DNA of 64,000 bases from Rariglobus sp. (GCA_029266495.1 JAQSWS010000032.1:1089-65088), one strand, 5' to 3'. Counted from the first letter of the stretch, positions 3,304 to 49,612 are shown. Notes: generated by a model from the letters alone, not told the origin. Made by a program: numbers and translations.

Positions 3304-4086
3304 ATGAACAACTGGCGAAACCTACCCCCTCGCCTGACCCGCGTCGGCACCTACAAGAGCCCGTTGGGCGGGTCGCGCAAACCGACCTCGGCGGATCAAA
3401 ATGAAGTGCTGTTCGAGGTCATCCAGGAGGGTTCCGTCTATGGACTCGAAGAGCAGCCGGTGTTGCACGGGGAAGGCGCGGTGTTTTGCCATCAGGCCGG
3501 ACAGGTGTCGGTCTCGGATTCGCCGTCGGAGAGCTACTATCACTGCTACGTCGTCTGGTTTGAGTGCGGGCAGGACGGCTTCGCTCCGGATTGGCCGAGG
3601 GTGTTTCAGTGGAAGGATCGCAAGTCGATGCACGCCTTCATGGATGAGATCCTCCATGCGTTTCACTACGTCGCGATGCCTCTCGATGTGATTGGCAACC
3701 TCATCCTCTCCCGTTTCGAGTTTGAGCTGGAGCGCTCGCGATCGCTGGCACGGACGCAAGCCATCCCGTCGCAGCTGAGTCTCGCGACCGATTTCATCAA
3801 CCGGAACTACGCGAAGCCGCTGTCGCTGGACGACGTGGCGAAGGCGGCGGATGTGAGCGTCTCGCACCTTCACATGCTGTTTCGCGAGCAGCTCGGCGAG
3901 AGTCCGCACCAATACCTGATCCAGAAGCGGCTGCGCATCGCCGGGCACGCCTTGGCCACGGGCAACCAGTCGATCAAGGCGCTGGCCGCCGAAGTCGGTT
4001 ACCCGAACGCTGAAAACTTTTGCCGGGCGTTCAAAAAGTTCTTCGGCCGGTCCGCCTCTGAATATCGTCAGGCATACTCGCGCTGA
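3304..4086 (+). CDS. AraC family transcriptional regulator
   Basis: C-terminal double HTH (LSLDDVAKAADVSVSHLHMLF...VGYPNAENFCRAFKK); divergent from the sugar genes; ATG at 3304. Confidence 0.9.
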   Translation: MNNWRNLPPRLTRVGTYKSPLGGSRKPTSADQNEVLFEVIQEGSVYGLEEQPVLHGEGAVFCHQAGQVSVSDSPSESYYHCYVVWFECGQDGFAPDWPRVFQWKDRKSMHAFMDEILHAFHYVAMPLDVIGNLILSRFEFELERSRSLARTQAIPSQLSLATDFINRNYAKPLSLDDVAKAADVSVSHLHMLFREQLGESPHQYLIQKRLRIAGHALATGNQSIKALAAEVGYPNAENFCRAFKKFFGRSASEYRQAYSR

Positions 4087-6635: not shown

Positions 6636-6665
6636 AAGCCCGGGCCGAAAGCGCCCGGGCTTTTT
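6636..6665 (+). terminator. Rho-independent terminator after kdgK
   Basis: AAGCCCGGGC-cgaaagc-GCCCGGGCTTTTT. Confidence 0.8.
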
Positions 6666-6735
6666 GTTGCACTTGTCCGACCGAGTCACCCATCTCGGAG
6701 CAAGCGGTCTCCGGTCACTCGGGAGCGCAAAAAAC

Positions 6736-7431
6736 ATGAGCGACTCCACTCCTCCCTCCCTGCCTCCTGCTCCGCCCGCATTGCCCGCAGTTTCAACTCC
6801 TTCGATTTATCACAAGGCCGCCAAATTCGCCGTCACGGTTTTGGTCGTCGCATTCTTGATCAATCTGTCGACGCAACTCGTGAGACCGCCCGGGACAGCT
6901 GGCATGACACCCGAATCGCGAATTATTTCAATGCTCGGAGGAAGCTTGTTCCTGCTTGCGATCCCCGCGGGGGTTATCGCCCTGTGCGGCATTAAAAAAC
7001 ATGGTCCCCGCCAGCTGCTTTGGCGGGGCCTGGTTGGGATTTTGGTTCCCGTGTTGCTCCTCGGGATGGCAATTCCTGCGTTTTTCAAAGTGCGCAATAC
7101 CGCGTCGGAAATGTTCCTTCGAAAGGTCGCCGCCGACCTCAACAAAGAATCTCCCAAAATGATCGATGAAATCACCCGCCTTGAAAAGGCCACGGCCGGC
7201 CCGGGTAACTTGCTCACCGTGGATGTCACCATCACCTCGCTCAAGGCGGACGAGATCGACCGCGAAATCTGGGCTGCCCAGGTTCGCCCCAATCTCAAGG
7301 CGGGAATCGTGGCGTCACCCCTCGCAAAGAGCCTGCGCACGGGCAGCACGATTACTTACCGGTATTCCGGCTCGGACGGCGTCAAAATCGACGAGATATC
7401 AGTCACCGCGGAAGACCTTCCGAAAAAATAG
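6736..7431 (+). CDS. Hypothetical membrane protein with a C-terminal soluble domain
   Basis: Pro-rich N-terminus, three hydrophobic segments, and a C-terminal domain with a pattern reminiscent of the PA3611/AspS2 type (SPKMIDEITRL...TITYRYSGSDG). Confidence 0.7.
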   Translation: MSDSTPPSLPPAPPALPAVSTPSIYHKAAKFAVTVLVVAFLINLSTQLVRPPGTAGMTPESRIISMLGGSLFLLAIPAGVIALCGIKKHGPRQLLWRGLVGILVPVLLLGMAIPAFFKVRNTASEMFLRKVAADLNKESPKMIDEITRLEKATAGPGNLLTVDVTITSLKADEIDREIWAAQVRPNLKAGIVASPLAKSLRTGSTITYRYSGSDGVKIDEISVTAEDLPKK

Positions 7432-7453: not shown

Positions 7454-7612
7454 GTTGTAGCCGCGGCCGTGCCGGCCGCGTGGTTCGAAATCACGGATGC
7501 ATCACCGAACACGCCCGGCACGGGCGTGGCTGCACGAAAACCCGACGGCCCCGCCGCGAAGTCATCCGGCATGCGTGCGCCTAGGCGGACGGCCCAGCGG
7601 TCCGTCCCTACC
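7454..7612. repeat. Composite GTAG-type REP cluster (copy B)
   Basis: GTAGCCGCGGCCGTGCCGGCCGCG...CACGCCCGGCACGGGCGTGGCT is an inverted copy of 468-545; the REP CGGACGGCCCAGCGGTCCGTCCCTACC follows at 7586-7612. Confidence 0.8.
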
Positions 7613-7617
7613 ATCCA

Positions 7618-10092
7618 TCACATCCCCGTCGTCTTGTCCGCGGCCAGGCACACGATGAATGAAAAACCGCCGCTGTTCTGGCCGTTTTCCAGACGGTAGA
7701 GCACGCGGTTGATGCCTTTCCGGAAATGCACCTTGCGCAAGCCTTCGTTGGCCACCCAGGACTTGTGGGCGTCGCCGCTCTTCCAGATCAACAGGTCGTT
7801 GATCCACACCTTCGACTGGTCGTCGCTGCCGATCGCCACCCACAGGTCCGCCGGCTCGTCGAACCAGAGTTCGGTATAACCGTAATAAATTTCGTAATCG
7901 CCGATCCCCGGCGGCCTGATCATCGGAACCACCGGCGTGCGTTCCTTGCCCGTCACCTGCGACGGCATCTGGAAAAACTCCCAGCGCACCGGCTCCGGCT
8001 CCCCGTCCTTGCGGCCACCCTGATAAACCGCATCGAGGTTCACCACCGTCTCCGGCGGAAATTTCGTATTCAGATTCTTGCGACCGGGGTTCGGCCACGG
8101 GCCGATGAGGTGCCAGGTGTCGACATACAGCCACTCGGCGCTGCGCCCCGGCTCGATGGCAACCTGGCCCGAACGCACGGTGCGCCCGTGAAGCGGTCTG
8201 TAGTTTTTGACGGGAATACCCGTGATACCGGGCACCGCGCCGGGCGCGCCTGAGCCGTCGCCAGCCGACCGGCCGGTCCCGGCCGGTGCGGCCCCCATCC
8301 CGTCGCCGCCCCCGACCCCGTGCACCCCGCCCGCCTGGTGCGCTGCGGCCATCTCGGCGCTCAGGTCCTTGGCCTTGGCTCCGGCATCCTCGCTCGCGAG
8401 TTGCTCCATGCGTTCGTTGCGCAGGCTTTGCGCCTGAATCTCGGCGACCGACAGGTTCGCCCCGGCCTCCGCGGCGAGTTCGCGCATGCGCTGGGCCAGC
8501 GCGACCATCGAGGCCATCTGCTCCGCCGCGGCACCGATGGCTTTCTCCTGCTCGCGCACCCCGGCCACGCTGGCGATGTCCTGCTTCAGGATCGCCGTGT
8601 TCAAGTCCGGGCGGTCGGGCGTGGCGACCTTCGTCATCGCGAGCGCCTCGGCGAGCGGGATCTTGCGAATGGCCGCCAGTTCCGCCGCACGCACATTTTT
8701 GAAGGTTTCCGCGACCGCGATTTCCGCGTCCTGCGCCTGCTTGAAATAATCCGCAAGCGTCCGCGCATTGTTAATGTCCGCCGTCGGCAGCACCGAGGGC
8801 TCGGCGGCCACGGCTGAACTGTCCTTGTGCGACTCCGTGATCGCCTTGGTGATGGCCGCATTGGCGGCCTGCTGGAGGGCCAGCGACGTTTGCTGCACCG
8901 CGATCGAACTGCGTTGCAGGTCGGCCGACTGCGTCACCGCAACCGCAACGGTCTCATTGAGGACCTCGCGCCGCTTCTGAACAACCGCGAGCGCCTCGTC
9001 GGTCTTCTGCTGCTGGCGGGCCGCGGAATCCTGGAGGCGTTTCGCCGCAGCCTGGCTCTGCCGCACCTCCTGTTCGGCCTTGGCCAGAACTGCCTGCTCC
9101 TTCTTTACCGCGGCGGCGGCCTGTTTCGCCAACTCCGCCAAGCGCTTCTTTTCCTCGGCGGCGGCGGATTTCGCGGCCTCGGTGCTCGCAGCGGCCTCCG
9201 CGCGGGCGGCTTCAACGCCCTGCCTTGCGGTCGTCAAAGTGCCCTGCCTCGCCTCCAGGGTGGACTGGGCGGCGGCGGCCTGGGACTGGAGCTGCGTCAG
9301 GGTGGTTTGTTGGCGCGCCGCGGCATACTCGGCGGTCGCGAGCGCCTGGTTGGCGGCGGCGAGCTGGCGGATGATTCCCGTCACCGCAGCCTGGGTCGAC
9401 CCGGCCTCACCTTGCGCGGTGGCGGCCGACTGCTGCGCGGTCAGCGCGGCGGTGGAGTCGCTCGCCAGCCGCAGTTGTTCGCCAATCTCCGCCTGGATAA
9501 CCACCGCCTGCTGCTGGGCGTTTCCAGCGTTCTGCTGGGCGGTCAACGCGGTTTGCAAAGCCGCGTCGGCCTGCGCGTGCGCCGACTGCGCGCCCCACGG
9601 AGTCGTGGCGGCGGAGCCCCGGGTATGCGCCTCGGTGAATGCGGCCAGCGCTTTCTGGGCGGACTCCTGGGCGGACAGAGCCTCTTTTTGCGCGACGATC
9701 ACCTGGTCAAAAACCGCGGGAAGGTCCTCCCGGACGCGCACTCCTTCGTCTTTGATGATCTCATTATACTGCGCGATTTTCTCCGCGTTGAGCCGGTCGA
9801 GTTCCTGTTTGATCTTGAGGAGTTCCTCCACCCGCTCCTTGAAGCGCGGGCTCTCGTCCTGGCGAATTTCCTCCACGACCTCGCGCACACGATCGGGACT
9901 GATCCGCATCGTAAACTCGGACGCGTCCCCGGCCGATTTATCGGCGGGTGGCGTGGCGACGTAAACCAGCCCGAAGAATGCGCCGTGCAATAAAATCGAC
10001 AGCCCCCACCAGGCGCCAAAACCGAGCGCGGAAAGGGCGAGCACCCAGCGGGACGCGCGCCGTCGTCTGGAAACTGGAAGCGGCTCACTCAC
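7618..10092 (-). CDS. Membrane-anchored Ala/Gln-rich coiled-coil protein with a C-terminal beta-sandwich (PA14/galactose-binding-like) domain
   Basis: N-terminal TM segment, ~550 aa of heptad-like A/Q/E/K sequence, a Gly-rich linker, then WHLIGPWPN...IGSDDQSKVWIND...KGINRVLYRLENG; start overlaps the exbD stop. Confidence 0.75.
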   Translation of the reverse strand: MSEPLPVSRRRRASRWVLALSALGFGAWWGLSILLHGAFFGLVYVATPPADKSAGDASEFTMRISPDRVREVVEEIRQDESPRFKERVEELLKIKQELDRLNAEKIAQYNEIIKDEGVRVREDLPAVFDQVIVAQKEALSAQESAQKALAAFTEAHTRGSAATTPWGAQSAHAQADAALQTALTAQQNAGNAQQQAVVIQAEIGEQLRLASDSTAALTAQQSAATAQGEAGSTQAAVTGIIRQLAAANQALATAEYAAARQQTTLTQLQSQAAAAQSTLEARQGTLTTARQGVEAARAEAAASTEAAKSAAAEEKKRLAELAKQAAAAVKKEQAVLAKAEQEVRQSQAAAKRLQDSAARQQQKTDEALAVVQKRREVLNETVAVAVTQSADLQRSSIAVQQTSLALQQAANAAITKAITESHKDSSAVAAEPSVLPTADINNARTLADYFKQAQDAEIAVAETFKNVRAAELAAIRKIPLAEALAMTKVATPDRPDLNTAILKQDIASVAGVREQEKAIGAAAEQMASMVALAQRMRELAAEAGANLSVAEIQAQSLRNERMEQLASEDAGAKAKDLSAEMAAAHQAGGVHGVGGGDGMGAAPAGTGRSAGDGSGAPGAVPGITGIPVKNYRPLHGRTVRSGQVAIEPGRSAEWLYVDTWHLIGPWPNPGRKNLNTKFPPETVVNLDAVYQGGRKDGEPEPVRWEFFQMPSQVTGKERTPVVPMIRPPGIGDYEIYYGYTELWFDEPADLWVAIGSDDQSKVWINDLLIWKSGDAHKSWVANEGLRKVHFRKGINRVLYRLENGQNSGGFSFIVCLAADKTTGM

Positions 10093-10508
10093 TTGCCAAC
10101 GTCCCGCGTGCGCAGGCTGATGTTGCGCAGGCCTTCGAATTGACAGAGTTCGACCACCTCGACCAGGTGCTCATACGGAGTCTGGCGGTCGGCATCGACG
10201 CGAATGGGTTGCTCGGCGTTCGCGGAGGCGGCCTGGCGGATCCGTTCGTGCAGAACGTCGGTCGTGACCTTGGCGGAATCGATGTATTTGGTGCCGGTCG
10301 CATCGATCCCGATGACCAGCAATTTCTCCTGCGAGGCGAGATTGGTCGAGGCGGTGGATTGCGGCAGCTCGATGGGGAGCGCCTTTTCCGTATTCTTGAT
10401 CGTGGTCGCGACCATGAAAAAGATCAGGAGGATCAACATGATGTCGATCATCGGGATCAAATTGATCTCCATCTCATCATCGTGCCGTTTACGACGCGCC
10501 ATGATCAC
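10089..10508 (-). CDS. exbD: Biopolymer transporter ExbD/TolR
   Basis: INLIPMIDIMLILLIFFMV with the conserved TM Asp; RVDADRQTPYEHLVEVV. Confidence 0.9.
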   Translation of the reverse strand: MIMARRKRHDDEMEINLIPMIDIMLILLIFFMVATTIKNTEKALPIELPQSTASTNLASQEKLLVIGIDATGTKYIDSAKVTTDVLHERIRQAASANAEQPIRVDADRQTPYEHLVEVVELCQFEGLRNISLRTRDVGK

Positions 10509-11298
10509 CCTCCCGGTCGACGAACCATGCCACGATCAGATCGGCGACTTCATCCTCGAGGAGAATTTCAAAGTTGCGCGTCTTGTTGCGGAAGTAGTGG
10601 AAACAGGCCAGGAAAGGGATCGCCAGTCCGATGCCGAGCGCCGTCGTGGTGAGCGCCTCGGAAATACCCGCGGCAAGCTGGGCGGGGTTGCCGAGGGCGC
10701 CGGCGAGCGCGACTTTTTCGAAGCTGGTGATCATGCCCAGCACCATGCCCATCAGGCCGAGCAACGGTTCCAGCGTCGCCACCACTCCGACGGGATAAGA
10801 GCGCTGCAAATGGGCGTCGATGTCGCGGCCGACCATGTCGCTGGCGATGGACGAGATGTCGCCCGCCGAGCGGCTGCGACGCTTGGCCAGAAAAGAAATG
10901 ACCCGCGCCAGCGTGCTCGGATCCTCGTCGGCCAGACGCTCCAGTTCTTCGAATTTTCCTTCGCGCCACAGGCGTTTGGCGCGTTCCGCCAGGCCGCGAG
11001 GGGCAATCTTGGACCGGCGCAGGCGGACGAACCGCTCAAAAATAAATCCGGTGCCAAAAACCGACAGGAGAAGCTGGACGATGCCGGTGGTGCCCGACTG
11101 ATGGAAGCGATCCAGCCAGATATTCCCGCCCGAGGCATGCTCGGGAACGGCGGCCTCCGCCGCAGGCTCGGGGGAGGCGGGCGGATTCGCACCGGCATCC
11201 GCCACCGCTGCGGAAGGCGCCGGCGCTGACTGGGCAAAAACGGCCGGAGACCAGGAGGTCAACACGAGGGCACACAGGAGCGAGAGGGTAATTCGCAT
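10489..11298 (-). CDS. exbB: MotA/TolQ/ExbB proton-channel protein with a signal-peptide-like N-terminal extension
   Basis: LEPLLGLMGMVLGMI and GISEALTTTALG TM motifs. Confidence 0.9.
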   Translation of the reverse strand: MRITLSLLCALVLTSWSPAVFAQSAPAPSAAVADAGANPPASPEPAAEAAVPEHASGGNIWLDRFHQSGTTGIVQLLLSVFGTGFIFERFVRLRRSKIAPRGLAERAKRLWREGKFEELERLADEDPSTLARVISFLAKRRSRSAGDISSIASDMVGRDIDAHLQRSYPVGVVATLEPLLGLMGMVLGMITSFEKVALAGALGNPAQLAAGISEALTTTALGIGLAIPFLACFHYFRNKTRNFEILLEDEVADLIVAWFVDREGDHGAS

Positions 11299-11359: not shown

Positions 11360-12034
11360 TCACACTTCGTCCGCGTTCACCGCGAGCAGCCGCGACTGCT
11401 CGCAACGTTTTCTCGATTTCTCGACGCCGAGCGCGTCGAGGCCGAGGGCGTTCGCCACGGCCAGCACGGTGCCCACGCCGCAGAACGGATCGAACACCGT
11501 GGCCGCGCCCACTTGTTCCCTGGCAAATCGCACGGCGTGCCCGGCCGCCCGCACGCCCATCGCGCGCACCCACGGCTGCCGTCCCATGTCCGTGATCACG
11601 TCGGGAACCGGCAGCACGTCCGGACACCGCATCGCCCGCGACACCGCGATCAGGTGCGTGTAACCGGGGCGTCCATACGTCAGCATGCCCGGCGGACGAC
11701 GGCAGACGATCTTGTGAAACAACACCTGCGCGCCGGCATCCTCCGCCGCACGAATCACGAGCGCGCCTTTGTCCACCCAGATGCCGTCACGTTTGATGTC
11801 TGATTGAAAAAACAACGCCGCGCTTTCGTCAGGCACGGAGTCCACCACCAAGGCCACGGCATGGAGAAACCACGTGCGCCACACCGGCAGCGCCATGCCG
11901 ACTTCCGAAACATCAGGCAACGAGGTCACCGCGCACGCCCCGGCGATCCGGCCGCGCTCCTTCATCCACGGAATCGCATCGGCACAGTGCACCTCGCGCT
12001 TCGGCGCGCTCGAACTCTCTTCAATAGCTTGCAT
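11360..12034 (-). CDS. SAM-dependent methyltransferase, N4/N6 DNA-methylase-like architecture
   Basis: C-terminal FDPFCGVGT (motif I); N-terminal VTSLPD sits where the motif IV TSPPY would be. Confidence 0.7.
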   Translation of the reverse strand: MQAIEESSSAPKREVHCADAIPWMKERGRIAGACAVTSLPDVSEVGMALPVWRTWFLHAVALVVDSVPDESAALFFQSDIKRDGIWVDKGALVIRAAEDAGAQVLFHKIVCRRPPGMLTYGRPGYTHLIAVSRAMRCPDVLPVPDVITDMGRQPWVRAMGVRAAGHAVRFAREQVGAATVFDPFCGVGTVLAVANALGLDALGVEKSRKRCEQSRLLAVNADEV

Positions 12035-12075
12035 GGCTTGCACCCTACCGTCTGTCACCCAAGCGTCACGCCCTC

Positions 12076-47713: not shown

Positions 47714-49612
47714 TTACGGCAGCACGAGTTGGAAACGAACGGCGTCCGCAATCACGTGGCCGGTCGTGCCGGTGTTGGACAGCATGACCTTGCCGCCGGT
47801 GCCGGCGTTGAACGGATAGGTGCCCAGCAATTGCCAGGAGCCGCCGTTGACCTGCTGATTTTTATACACGGGGACGGTGCCGGCATTGTAGGTGATGTTA
47901 TACGGCACGTTGTTCGAACGACTGACGTCGGCGGTCCAGCGGGCATAGACATTGTAGGTCCCGGCCACGGGCAGGTTGGGGGTGAACGTGGCGGTCTTGG
48001 ATCCTTTGCCGGTGTTGTCGTCGTGAATGTAATTCACGCCTTGGAAGCCGGCGATGCCCGTGCTGTGGGGCCAGGTGCCGACTTTGACGCAGTTGGCGTT
48101 GTCCACGATGATTTCGCCGGCGATCGGCGTGAAGCGAACGGCGTCGGCAATCACATGGCCGTTGGTGCCGGTCGTGCGGATCTTCACGGATGCATTGGTC
48201 TTCGAGAGCGCGTAGGTGCCGAGCAACCTCCAGGTGCCTCCGTTGACGGTCTGGTCGACGGTCACGGTGGCGGTGGCTCCATTGGCCTTCACGATGTCGA
48301 CCGGGACGTTCGTCGCGCGGCCGGCGCCGGAAGTCCAGCGCAGGTAGACATTGTAGGTGCCGCTCTCGCTCAGGGCCGGTGTGAACTGGACGGACTTGGA
48401 GCCCTTGTTGGTGTTGTTGTCATGAAGATAACCGCTGCCGTTGTAACCGGCCACGCCGGTGCTGTTGATCCAGCCGTCGGCGCCGGGAACGACGGTGATG
48501 CCGGAGGTGTCCTCGCTGTCCTTCACCGGTTCGCTCCGCAGGTAGACGCGACTGTAGTCCCAGTCGTAATATTTGCCGGCGAGCGCGGAGGCGGCCAGGG
48601 GGAAGTTATTGTTCGCGACCGTGCGACTGCCCCAGGTGCCGTCGAAGATGAAACTCATGTTGATGGGTTCATCGGTGGGCTCGGCGCCAAAGGTCCAGTG
48701 AAGCGTGCCGCTCTGCACCTCGATGCCGTCCACGTAGGCGCTGTAGGTGTTGTCCTTGCGATAAAGCCAGGTCCACGTGTGCCAGTTGGAGGCCAGGTAA
48801 GGTGGCGGCGTGCCGTAGGCGGGGATGCCGCGGGACTGCATGGCGTTGGCCCAGTTGGAGTGATAATCCGTGGTGGCGGTGCCGCCGACCACGCTGGAGT
48901 GCCAATACCGGCCGTCGTAATTCGTGCCGCCTCCGATCGCGGTGTTGTCGTAGCCAAACGTTTCGATGAGGTCGTATTCGGCTCCCTTCGGAACGTTATT
49001 TTCCATCGCCCACTTGTTCCCGGCCGTCCAGAGCGCGAACCAGAAATAAGGCGGGGTCACATAACGCACCCGCGTCTCCCACAGGATGTCCTGCCCCAGG
49101 AGCGAACCGCCTCGCGGCAGCGTCCACTTGGCCTGGAACGAACCGCTGCCGGTGTTCATCGCGGCCGGGGTCAGCGTCGTCGCGCCGTTCAGCGGCACCA
49201 GATAGGTGCGCAGCGCGTCCGTCTGGAATGCACGGACCGGCGTGGCGGTGTTGACGCCCTCGACCGGCTGGCCGGACAACGCATTGGTGGTGTCCGGAGC
49301 GACGATCTTTGCTCCATAGTTCCCGTTGGCGATGGTCCCGAACTGGTCGTGATACTGGAAGTGCGAACTCATGGTCGTGATATTGGTGACCGTGCTGCTC
49401 GCGCTGGTGCCGAAATTCCAGTTCTTGACCAGGGCCCATCCGGAGCCGCCCACGGAGTTGGCGGGAGCCGGGCCGTCCGCCGGACTGGCGATGGTGCCTC
49501 CGCCGATCGTTTCGGCCGAGACCAACGCGGGGGCGATCAGGGTGGAAAAACCGACGGAATACGCGACCTTCGAGGACAAGGCGCGGCGTAGTTGAATCAA
49601 CAATACAGACAT
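47714..49612 (-). CDS. Secreted GH16-like beta-jelly-roll protein with two C-terminal golvesin/Xly-CBD-like modules
   Basis: WFALW...AEYDLIETFG (ExDxxE-like), WHTWTWLY...AYVDG; two repeats of YNVY.RWT...R.TNV....VDQ.VNGG.W.LLGTY...GHVIADAVRF. Confidence 0.75.
   Translation of the reverse strand: MSVLLIQLRRALSSKVAYSVGFSTLIAPALVSAETIGGGTIASPADGPAPANSVGGSGWALVKNWNFGTSASSTVTNITTMSSHFQYHDQFGTIANGNYGAKIVAPDTTNALSGQPVEGVNTATPVRAFQTDALRTYLVPLNGATTLTPAAMNTGSGSFQAKWTLPRGGSLLGQDILWETRVRYVTPPYFWFALWTAGNKWAMENNVPKGAEYDLIETFGYDNTAIGGGTNYDGRYWHSSVVGGTATTDYHSNWANAMQSRGIPAYGTPPPYLASNWHTWTWLYRKDNTYSAYVDGIEVQSGTLHWTFGAEPTDEPINMSFIFDGTWGSRTVANNNFPLAASALAGKYYDWDYSRVYLRSEPVKDSEDTSGITVVPGADGWINSTGVAGYNGSGYLHDNNTNKGSKSVQFTPALSESGTYNVYLRWTSGAGRATNVPVDIVKANGATATVTVDQTVNGGTWRLLGTYALSKTNASVKIRTTGTNGHVIADAVRFTPIAGEIIVDNANCVKVGTWPHSTGIAGFQGVNYIHDDNTGKGSKTATFTPNLPVAGTYNVYARWTADVSRSNNVPYNITYNAGTVPVYKNQQVNGGSWQLLGTYPFNAGTGGKVMLSNTGTTGHVIADAVRFQLVLP

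Follow-up and report, generated by a model that had tools for sequence, protein, structure and literature searches.

A conserved ExbB-ExbD motor module with a candidate SHLS-type force transducer in Rariglobus and related bacteria

A 64,000-nucleotide (nt) stretch of DNA from Rariglobus sp. (GCA_029266495.1 JAQSWS010000032.1:1089-65088), which we refer to as the window, carries a minus-strand cluster of three genes that encode an ExbB-like protein, an ExbD-like protein, and a protein of 824 amino acids (aa) that matches no known family. We consider it probable that these genes specify a self-contained envelope machine driven by the proton motive force (pmf), in which a dedicated motor works through a new type of force transducer. 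This reading draws on the identities of the genes, on a Ser-His-Leu-Ser (SHLS) motif in the transmembrane (TM) helix of the 824-aa protein and its conservation among relatives, on the fold class of the C-terminal head of the same protein, on strict synteny, and on a motor lineage distinct from the one linked to TonB. From these observations we infer that the large protein physically docks on the motor and transmits force to a ligand, and that the module probably couples membrane energy to an envelope target.

Gene layout and membrane anchor

The features of the module are listed below. Domain boundaries in the 824-aa protein draw in part on a full-length AlphaFold2 (AF2) model with a predicted local distance difference test score (pLDDT) of 81 and a predicted template modeling score (pTM) of 0.63.

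10489..11298, minus: exbB/tolQ-like motor subunit gene; 269 aa; PF01618 (MotA_ExbB), E 1.7e-19; N-terminal signal-like extension
10089..10502, minus: exbD/tolR-like motor subunit gene; 137 aa from the ATG at 10502, the most likely start; PF02472, E 6.9e-33
10089-10508, minus: full open reading frame (ORF) of exbD; 139 aa; the GTG at 10508 is an alternative start
7618..10092, minus: gene of the 824-aa force-transducer candidate, stop codon included; ORF call and homologs
9955..10053, minus: TM helix, aa 14-46; SHLS-type motif S32, H36, V43, T47, preceded by cytoplasmic RRRR
9898..9954, minus: post-TM segment, aa 47-65 (...EFTMRIS), candidate "motor box" strand; pLDDT <50 at 48-62
8830..9897, minus: Ala/Gln-rich helical stalk, aa 66-421; pLDDT mostly >90 in AF2; A 24%, Q 13%
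8332..8757, minus: conserved helical domain, aa 446-587 (142 aa); alignment conservation, AF2 helices, split-gene loci
8197..8331, minus: Gly-rich flexible linker, aa 588-632, 36% Gly; composition, and pLDDT <50 at 589-624
7621..8196, minus: C-terminal beta-sandwich head, aa 633-824 (all-beta part 633-815); AF2 and Foldseek
7543..7556, minus: terminator-like hairpin with a T-run behind it, about 60 nt past the stop of the large gene; weak evidence from a consensus scan only

Adjacent genes of the module overlap. The ATG of exbD (MARRKRH...) lies 14 nt within the 3' end of exbB, and the TGA stop of exbD overlaps the GTG start of the large gene as GTGA. A preliminary description of the window had called the three genes translationally coupled, and both junctions and all three minus-strand ORFs (7618-11298) agree with that claim. 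The large ORF is a genuine gene rather than a product of chance, since it has 89 homologs in 90%-identity clusters, 603 clusters at E<=1e-30 in a 50%-identity library, and 30 invariant columns in its head. It is present as a single copy in its own genome. The NCBI automatic name of one homolog is "cell envelope integrity protein TolA," and the remaining homologs are named "hypothetical." The protein itself belongs to no Pfam, NCBIfam, or PADLOC family and has no Pfam match at E<=0.1, and a Pfam scan of 36 relatives returned stray coiled-coil matches only.

The 824-aa protein starts with a cytoplasmic segment (residues 1-13) that contains RRRR at R9-R12, followed by its TM helix. TonB and TolA share a Ser-3X-His-6X-Leu-3X-Ser motif that contacts TM1 of ExbB or TolQ in cryo-electron microscopy (cryo-EM) structures (PMC12905483), and the TM helix of the 824-aa protein has the same arrangement as S32-x3-H36-x6-V43-x3-T47. 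We counted motif residues in an alignment of 36 family members, using as denominators the sequences that have a residue at the column. The S32 column is Ser and the H36 column is His in 30/33 relatives each. The +11 column is Leu in 24 sequences and Val in 5, the +15 column is Ser or Thr in 18/32, and the residue that follows is Pro in 25 sequences. A search of the family profile against all PDB sequences returned as top matches the TolA chains of TolQRA cryo-EM structures (9ddm_F, E 1.2e-10). This alignment runs from the TM helix through domain II of TolA and is confident only in its TM part, the single high-posterior stretch, where S, H, L, and S fall column for column on those of Escherichia coli TolA. 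The conserved TonB/TolA-type motif indicates that the 824-aa protein would dock on the ExbB/ExbD motor, which supports the earlier proposal that it is the membrane-anchored partner of this motor.

The segment directly after the helix carries a [DE]F.M.[IV]SP pattern (EFTMRISP in the window protein) that is kept only among closer relatives. By analogy, this segment is a possible counterpart of the "motor box" strand of TonB and TolA (PMC12204202; here and below, as presented in sections 7 and 8 of that article).

Synteny, split operons, and motor lineage

To assess the distribution of the module, we scanned one genome per species and found relatives of the large protein in 308 species genomes, of which the best 80 loci were examined for neighboring genes. 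These best 80 of 308 relatives are almost all from the Planctomycetota-Verrucomicrobiota-Chlamydiota (PVC) group, with a few from KSB1, Sumerlaeota, and Armatimonadota bins, and the nearest relative, at 88% identity, is from a Rariglobus (Opitutaceae) metagenome-assembled genome (MAG). Twelve of the 80 loci have no upstream sequence, which leaves 68 that can be evaluated. ExbD is encoded directly upstream and on the same strand in 68/68 of these, and ExbB is present in 66, with the remaining two ending at contig edges. Five loci retrieved by the exact protein likewise have an identical exbB-exbD-arm order within unrelated flanks. The synteny of the triad, which the preliminary description had put forward as a check, thus extends to every evaluable related locus across the PVC phyla. 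All-against-all clustering of the ORFs in the 80 loci revealed no conserved neighbor beyond the module and its shadow ORFs.

At least 11 of the inspected loci divide the arm between two overlapping genes. This split form occurs in Phycisphaerae, Kiritimatiellia, Victivallales, Methylacidiphilales, Puniceicoccaceae, Sumerlaeota, and other lineages. The product of the first gene (350-465 aa) has a W..S...H TM helix and the stalk. That of the second (400-550 aa) carries what looks like a cleavable signal peptide, and with it the conserved helical domain, Gly tether, and sandwich head. The 824-aa protein of the window is a fusion of the two split proteins, and the pattern of fission and fusion functionally ties the two halves of the arm to each other. 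It further shows that the distal part can act as a soluble protein of the periplasm, which then has to attach to the stalk.

The motor subunits have the MotA_ExbB and ExbD domains and the essential TM Asp of a 5:2 motor. This Asp lies in PMIDIM of the window ExbD, and its column (P.iDc) is conserved across 69 family sequences. Both window subunits score slightly better on the TolQ/TolR models than on the ExbB/ExbD models, but far below the equivalog cut-offs (for ExbB, 54 bits on the tolQ model TIGR02796 versus 40 bits on the exbB model, both far below cut-off).

In the genome of the window strain, MotA/ExbB gives nine hits and TonB_C gives seven, and three of the ExbB genes adjoin TonB_C genes (on C40, C148, and C140) in ordinary ExbB-TonB clusters. 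A 382-aa ORF on another contig, C166, has three TonB_C matches. The window ExbB matches its own-genome paralogs at E 1e-13 or worse, versus E 1e-36 to 1e-133 for module ExbBs of other phyla. In a maximum-likelihood tree, 65/66 module ExbBs form one clade (support 100/99), and all eight own-genome paralogs fall outside it. Phylogeny and sequence similarity thus mark the ExbB/ExbD motor as dedicated to the module and as a lineage separate from the TonB-linked paralogs.

These results bear on whether the large protein is coupled to the motor at all. Alternatively, it could be a structural or scaffold component of the periplasm, encoded in one operon with an ExbBD pair whose actual partner is a TonB from another locus, and the genome does contain TonB_C proteins without an adjoining motor (on C166 and C153). 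We regard this explanation as very unlikely. Conservation of both His and Ser in the TM helix with exact SHLS spacing would be hard to explain otherwise, the gene order is strict in 68/68 loci across phyla, and the motor lineage found with the arm is distinct from the TonB-linked paralogs.

Outside the window, the same genome carries an ExbB-like gene and two ExbD-like genes followed by a gene for a 379-aa protein (C164:37190-39730, minus strand). This protein has a TM helix with S-x3-H (FVSVLIHV), a Gly-rich linker, and a C-terminal domain with no Pfam match. We rejected the possibility that it shares the head domain of the 824-aa protein (hhalign probability 0.1%), and it may represent yet another transducer type.

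Within the window, the module is flanked by genes unrelated to it: an AraC regulator, a Zn-dehydrogenase, a PfkB kinase, a Gfo/Idh/MocA oxidoreductase, and an isochorismate synthase. The preliminary description had noted no TonB-dependent receptor nearby, and we likewise found none among the flanking genes within about 7 kb or among window ORFs of >=550 aa. Immediately upstream of exbB, after a gap of 62 nt, is a methyltransferase-like gene (11360-12058, minus strand), a 232-aa ORF with a short C-terminal match to N6_N4 DNA methylase (E 7e-7); in the clustering of the 80 loci, it is not kept beside the module in other genomes. A gene convergent to the large gene (6664-7431, plus strand) encodes a 255-aa predicted membrane protein with a weak DUF7311 match below cut-off, and it is not conserved near the module elsewhere. 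Farther away, a 632-aa ORF (47714-49612, minus strand) contains two Golvesin_C domains (E 5.6e-56) and is unrelated to the motor module.

The periplasmic arm and its head

The sequence and the AF2 model bear out much of the earlier outline of the large protein, namely, RRRR followed by an N-terminal TM anchor, a Gly-rich hinge, and a C-terminal beta-sandwich with GSDD.KVW.N (GSDDQSKVWIN at residues 755-765 of the head). The roughly 550 aa of coiled coil proposed in between needs to be revised. The Ala/Gln-rich helices are there, but they make up a stalk of about 356 aa, which is separated from the 142-aa conserved helical domain by a poorly conserved linker (residues 422-445). In the model, the stalk consists of four long helices (66-161, 165-210, 214-308, and 312-421) with 3-residue turns between them. 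Turns this tight suggest that the helices fold back on one another into a bundle instead of extending as one 80-nm rod. The long helical stalk of the earlier periplasm-spanning rod is thus retained, but a folded bundle followed by a second helical domain appears likelier than an extended rod. The stalk differs in length among relatives, whose total protein lengths range from 500 to 1200 aa. The helical domain has the consensus RAAELA.IR.IPL..AL ... ME.LA.ED.G..AKDL.

For the head, we modeled the last 216 residues from a 36-sequence alignment (pLDDT 81, pTM 0.80). Foldseek against the PDB matched this model to the N-terminal sugar-binding jelly roll of a glycoside hydrolase (GH) family 2 (GH2) beta-glucuronidase (5z18; E 1.3e-4, template modeling score [TM-score] 0.39), to the PA14 insert in a beta-glucosidase from yeast (3abz; 2.4 Å over about 95 residues), and to cycloisomaltooligosaccharide glucanotransferase 3wnn, with E values of 1.3e-4 to 1e-3 across the three at probability 1.0. 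With the full-length model, unrelated long-helix proteins made up most of the matches, and the only additions were further PA14 and GH domains, including the lectin-type PA14 domain of MpIBP, an adhesin of Marinomonas (6x7z). The head thus has the beta-sandwich typical of PA14 and galactose-binding-like domains (Foldseek probability 0.99-1.0). By sequence, the head gave only a chance match in the PDB (E 0.34). Neither Pfam (TonB_C [PF03544], TolA, or TonB_2 in the large protein) nor Foldseek (TonB or TolA folds for the head) returned a match to the distal domains of the known transducers. The statement that the protein has no TonB C-terminal domain therefore stands for both TonB_C and TolA domain III (TolA-III), and the structural comparison suggested along with it places the predicted domain among galactose-binding-like or PA14-like beta-sandwiches, an assignment made at the level of fold class only.

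The head is strongly conserved. Across Verrucomicrobiota, Planctomycetota, Lentisphaerota, and Kiritimatiellia, 30 of its columns never vary; among them are GSDD, several Trp residues, and E..EN. The DD....W.N strand motif appears to resemble the signature of PA14 and GH2 N-terminal (GH2-N) domains. PA14 lectins have an Asp-cis-Asp site for Ca2+ and sugar, and D757-D758 of GSDD (755-758) are invariant in the head alignment. From the fold class of the model alone, we would put the chance that the head binds a glycan at slightly under even.

The 603 clusters from the 50%-identity library (E<=1e-30) come from a search with a profile of the head only, and in them the head is nearly always C-terminal. 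An exception is P0180, a 3178-aa protein of the representative library. It has seven head copies interleaved with CarboxypepD_reg domains and shows that the domain can also serve as a repeat unit away from the motor. Its head copies have weak, sub-threshold or marginal Pfam matches to BetaGal_ABD2, GH2_N2, and PA14, which fits a head that belongs to the galactose-binding-like superfamily and serves in binding.

The target of such a module might be a nutrient. A lectin head could grab imported or surface polysaccharide that the motor then reels through an enlarged periplasm, as part of the "selfish" uptake in PVC bacteria. The fold class of carbohydrate-binding sandwiches is compatible with this explanation, as are the distribution of the family almost wholly within polysaccharide-degrading PVC lineages and a related locus (L004) that adjoins GH3 and GHL genes. 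We nevertheless consider it improbable, as substrate-specific binding modules normally diversify and multiply, whereas this head is near-invariant in its 30 columns and its gene is single-copy. Moreover, no carbohydrate-active enzyme or transporter gene is conserved beside the module, and its neighbors in the window are unrelated housekeeping genes. Because the head is nearly invariant, the gene is single-copy, and the module sits among varied housekeeping genes, we favor one conserved envelope ligand over varied dietary or nutrient glycans.

Proposed mechanism and relation to known transducers

We propose an inner-membrane proton motor of the 5:2 type, built from ExbB and ExbD. The TM helix of the 824-aa protein would dock on the rim of the ExbB pentamer through the Ser-x3-His-x6-Leu-x3-Ser face used by TonB and TolA. 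The periplasmic arm, with its stalk, helical domain, Gly-rich tether, and sandwich head, would stand in for the Pro-rich linker and TonB_C or TolA-III. Proton flow through ExbBD would move or tension the stalk, and the head would exert force on, or cyclically capture, a highly conserved envelope ligand. A glycan would be the most probable ligand, for example peptidoglycan or a saccharide associated with the outer membrane; a conserved outer-membrane protein is the alternative.

Several observations weigh against a dedicated pmf motor with a glycan-directed transducer. In the anchor, the window protein itself has Val for the motif Leu and Thr for the final Ser, and outside the TM helix the TolA profile match is heavily compositional (43 bits, with a bias term of 83). 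In the motor, a TM2 position of ExbB (aa ~181-190, GLMGMVLGM) varies across the module family and is occupied by Met in the window, while the TM3 "TT" and Pro are conserved. E. coli ExbB has a conserved Thr ring in TM2 and TM3 (T148 and T181), and alignment by eye would make this Met the equivalent of Thr148; the proton path may therefore differ from that of ExbB/TolQ. The single module ExbB outside the clade, from an Armatimonadota MAG (L073, ExbB at ~3331-3840), is on a long branch beside a TonB-linked paralog and may reflect a motor replacement or a mis-binned or divergent sequence. As for the head, the Foldseek TM-scores are modest (0.33-0.40), Pfam finds no PF07691 (PA14) or GH2_N match in the 824-aa protein or its 36 relatives, and galactose-binding-like sandwiches can bind proteins too. 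Lastly, no outer-membrane partner gene is conserved in the module neighborhoods.

Comparison with the TolA of E. coli TolQRA (PDB 9ddm and 9k49) reveals both shared and divergent characteristics. Like TolA, the arm has a single N-terminal SHLS TM helix and a long Ala-rich helical periplasmic region, and its gene directly follows a Q/R-type motor pair. Unlike TolA, it is without domain III, and its head is a predicted galactose-binding-like sandwich behind an extra conserved helical domain and a Gly tether. The module also differs from Tol-Pal in its context, as tolB, pal, and cpoB are not neighbors in the 68 loci, TolB_N and Pal are not detected in the genome, and the motor scores below the TolQ/TolR equivalog cut-offs. 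The resemblance to TonB is comparable, consisting of the SHLS TM helix, the gene order exbB-exbD-transducer, and a presumed pmf-driven action on a distal partner. In place of the Pro-rich rigid linker of TonB, however, the arm has a helical, Ala/Gln-rich region followed by the Gly-rich tether; it has no TonB_C by sequence or fold and no TonB-dependent receptor in the window or among the conserved neighbors of related loci, and the ordinary ExbB-TonB_C clusters elsewhere in the genome use different ExbB paralogs. We conclude that the arm belongs to neither the TonB nor the TolA family, sharing their N-terminal feature but not those of their C termini and genomic context.

The module could still be a functional stand-in for Tol-Pal that delivers pmf to outer-membrane tethering or constriction and envelope integrity, with the head gripping peptidoglycan or a conserved outer-membrane component as TolA-III grips TolB/Pal. 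This would be a more specific version of the dedicated-motor reading rather than a contradiction of it. Such a Tol-like role would be an attractive specialization, prompted by a genome that is 99.75% complete and gives no match to TolB_N (PF04052) or Pal_lipo (TIGR02802). It would also agree with the slight preference of ExbB and ExbD for the TolQ/TolR models, with TolA as the best profile match in the PDB and as the NCBI name of one homolog, and with a single-copy gene among varied housekeeping neighbors whose head is extremely conserved across phyla, as would fit one housekeeping ligand. The missing TolA-III fold, the 68 loci that have no tolB, pal, or cpoB neighbor, and TolQ/TolR scores far under the equivalog cut-offs all speak against it, and we judge a Tol-Pal stand-in to be a minority prospect with perhaps a modest chance of being correct.

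Other 5:2 motors drive gliding (GldLM and AglRQS) or defense (ZorAB), and the long helical stalk and binding head of the arm recall such systems. A machine for surface motility or for moving adhesins, or a Zorya-like anti-phage sensor on a MotAB-type motor, is nonetheless highly implausible here. None of the three proteins matches a PADLOC family, no gliding, type IX secretion system, or defense neighbors are conserved, the arm is no modified A or B subunit but a separate third protein whose peripheral helix is of the TonB/TolA type, and an inner-membrane anchor offers no evident route to the cell surface. We therefore rejected both the gliding and the Zorya-like defense explanations for want of a supporting family match or neighbor.

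The nearest published concept to the dedicated motor and arm described here, as far as sections 7 and 8 of that article present it, is a group of SHLS transducers with von Willebrand factor A (vWA) heads, proposed in 2025 to occur beside tolQR-like genes in PVC, Bacteroidetes, and Proteobacteria (Williams-Jones et al.; PMC12204202). Like the present module, these systems combine a TolQR/ExbBD-like motor with an adjacent SHLS protein whose linker leads to a head that is neither TonB- nor TolA-like, and they too are found in PVC bacteria. The two differ in the head, which is a Rossmann-type vWA domain in those transducers and a beta-sandwich in the window arm, and in the linker, which is about 100 residues long and Pro-rich or disordered there and a helical stalk of >350 aa plus a helical domain here. 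The vWA system further includes a tetratricopeptide repeat (TPR) gene and two tolR-like genes, whereas the window module has a single exbD and no TPR gene. The same sections state that more such systems remain to be found. The present family is not mentioned in sections 7 and 8 of the main text or under keywords in the rest of it (PMC12204202), and we found no published description of this family in the literature.

The arm can also be compared with the carbohydrate-binding sandwiches of PA14, GH2-N, and galactose-binding-like proteins (3abz, 6x7z, and 5z18), with which its head shares a common fold class. Unlike these proteins, it has no Pfam match and TM-scores no higher than the range given above, and the domain resides on an arm anchored in the inner membrane instead of on an enzyme or adhesin.

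In double-membraned bacteria, Ton and Tol are the two textbook routes by which inner-membrane energy reaches the outer envelope. The present family would add another transducer type, one that is widespread, has its own motor lineage, occurs in fused and split forms, and carries a head with a carbohydrate-binding fold. More speculatively, PVC bacteria, many of which are without Tol-Pal, might use the module as a pmf-driven envelope tether in which a lectin-like head grips peptidoglycan or a conserved envelope glycan while the motor tensions the arm. This proposal is bolder than a Tol-like role in general and a little less likely to be right; if true, trans-envelope force transduction would have a third functional class next to Ton and Tol, one whose point of action is a glycan and not a protein box. 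The family also provides a concrete and testable entry point to envelope mechanics in Verrucomicrobia, Planctomycetes, Lentisphaerae, and Kiritimatiellia, groups whose envelope biology is poorly understood.

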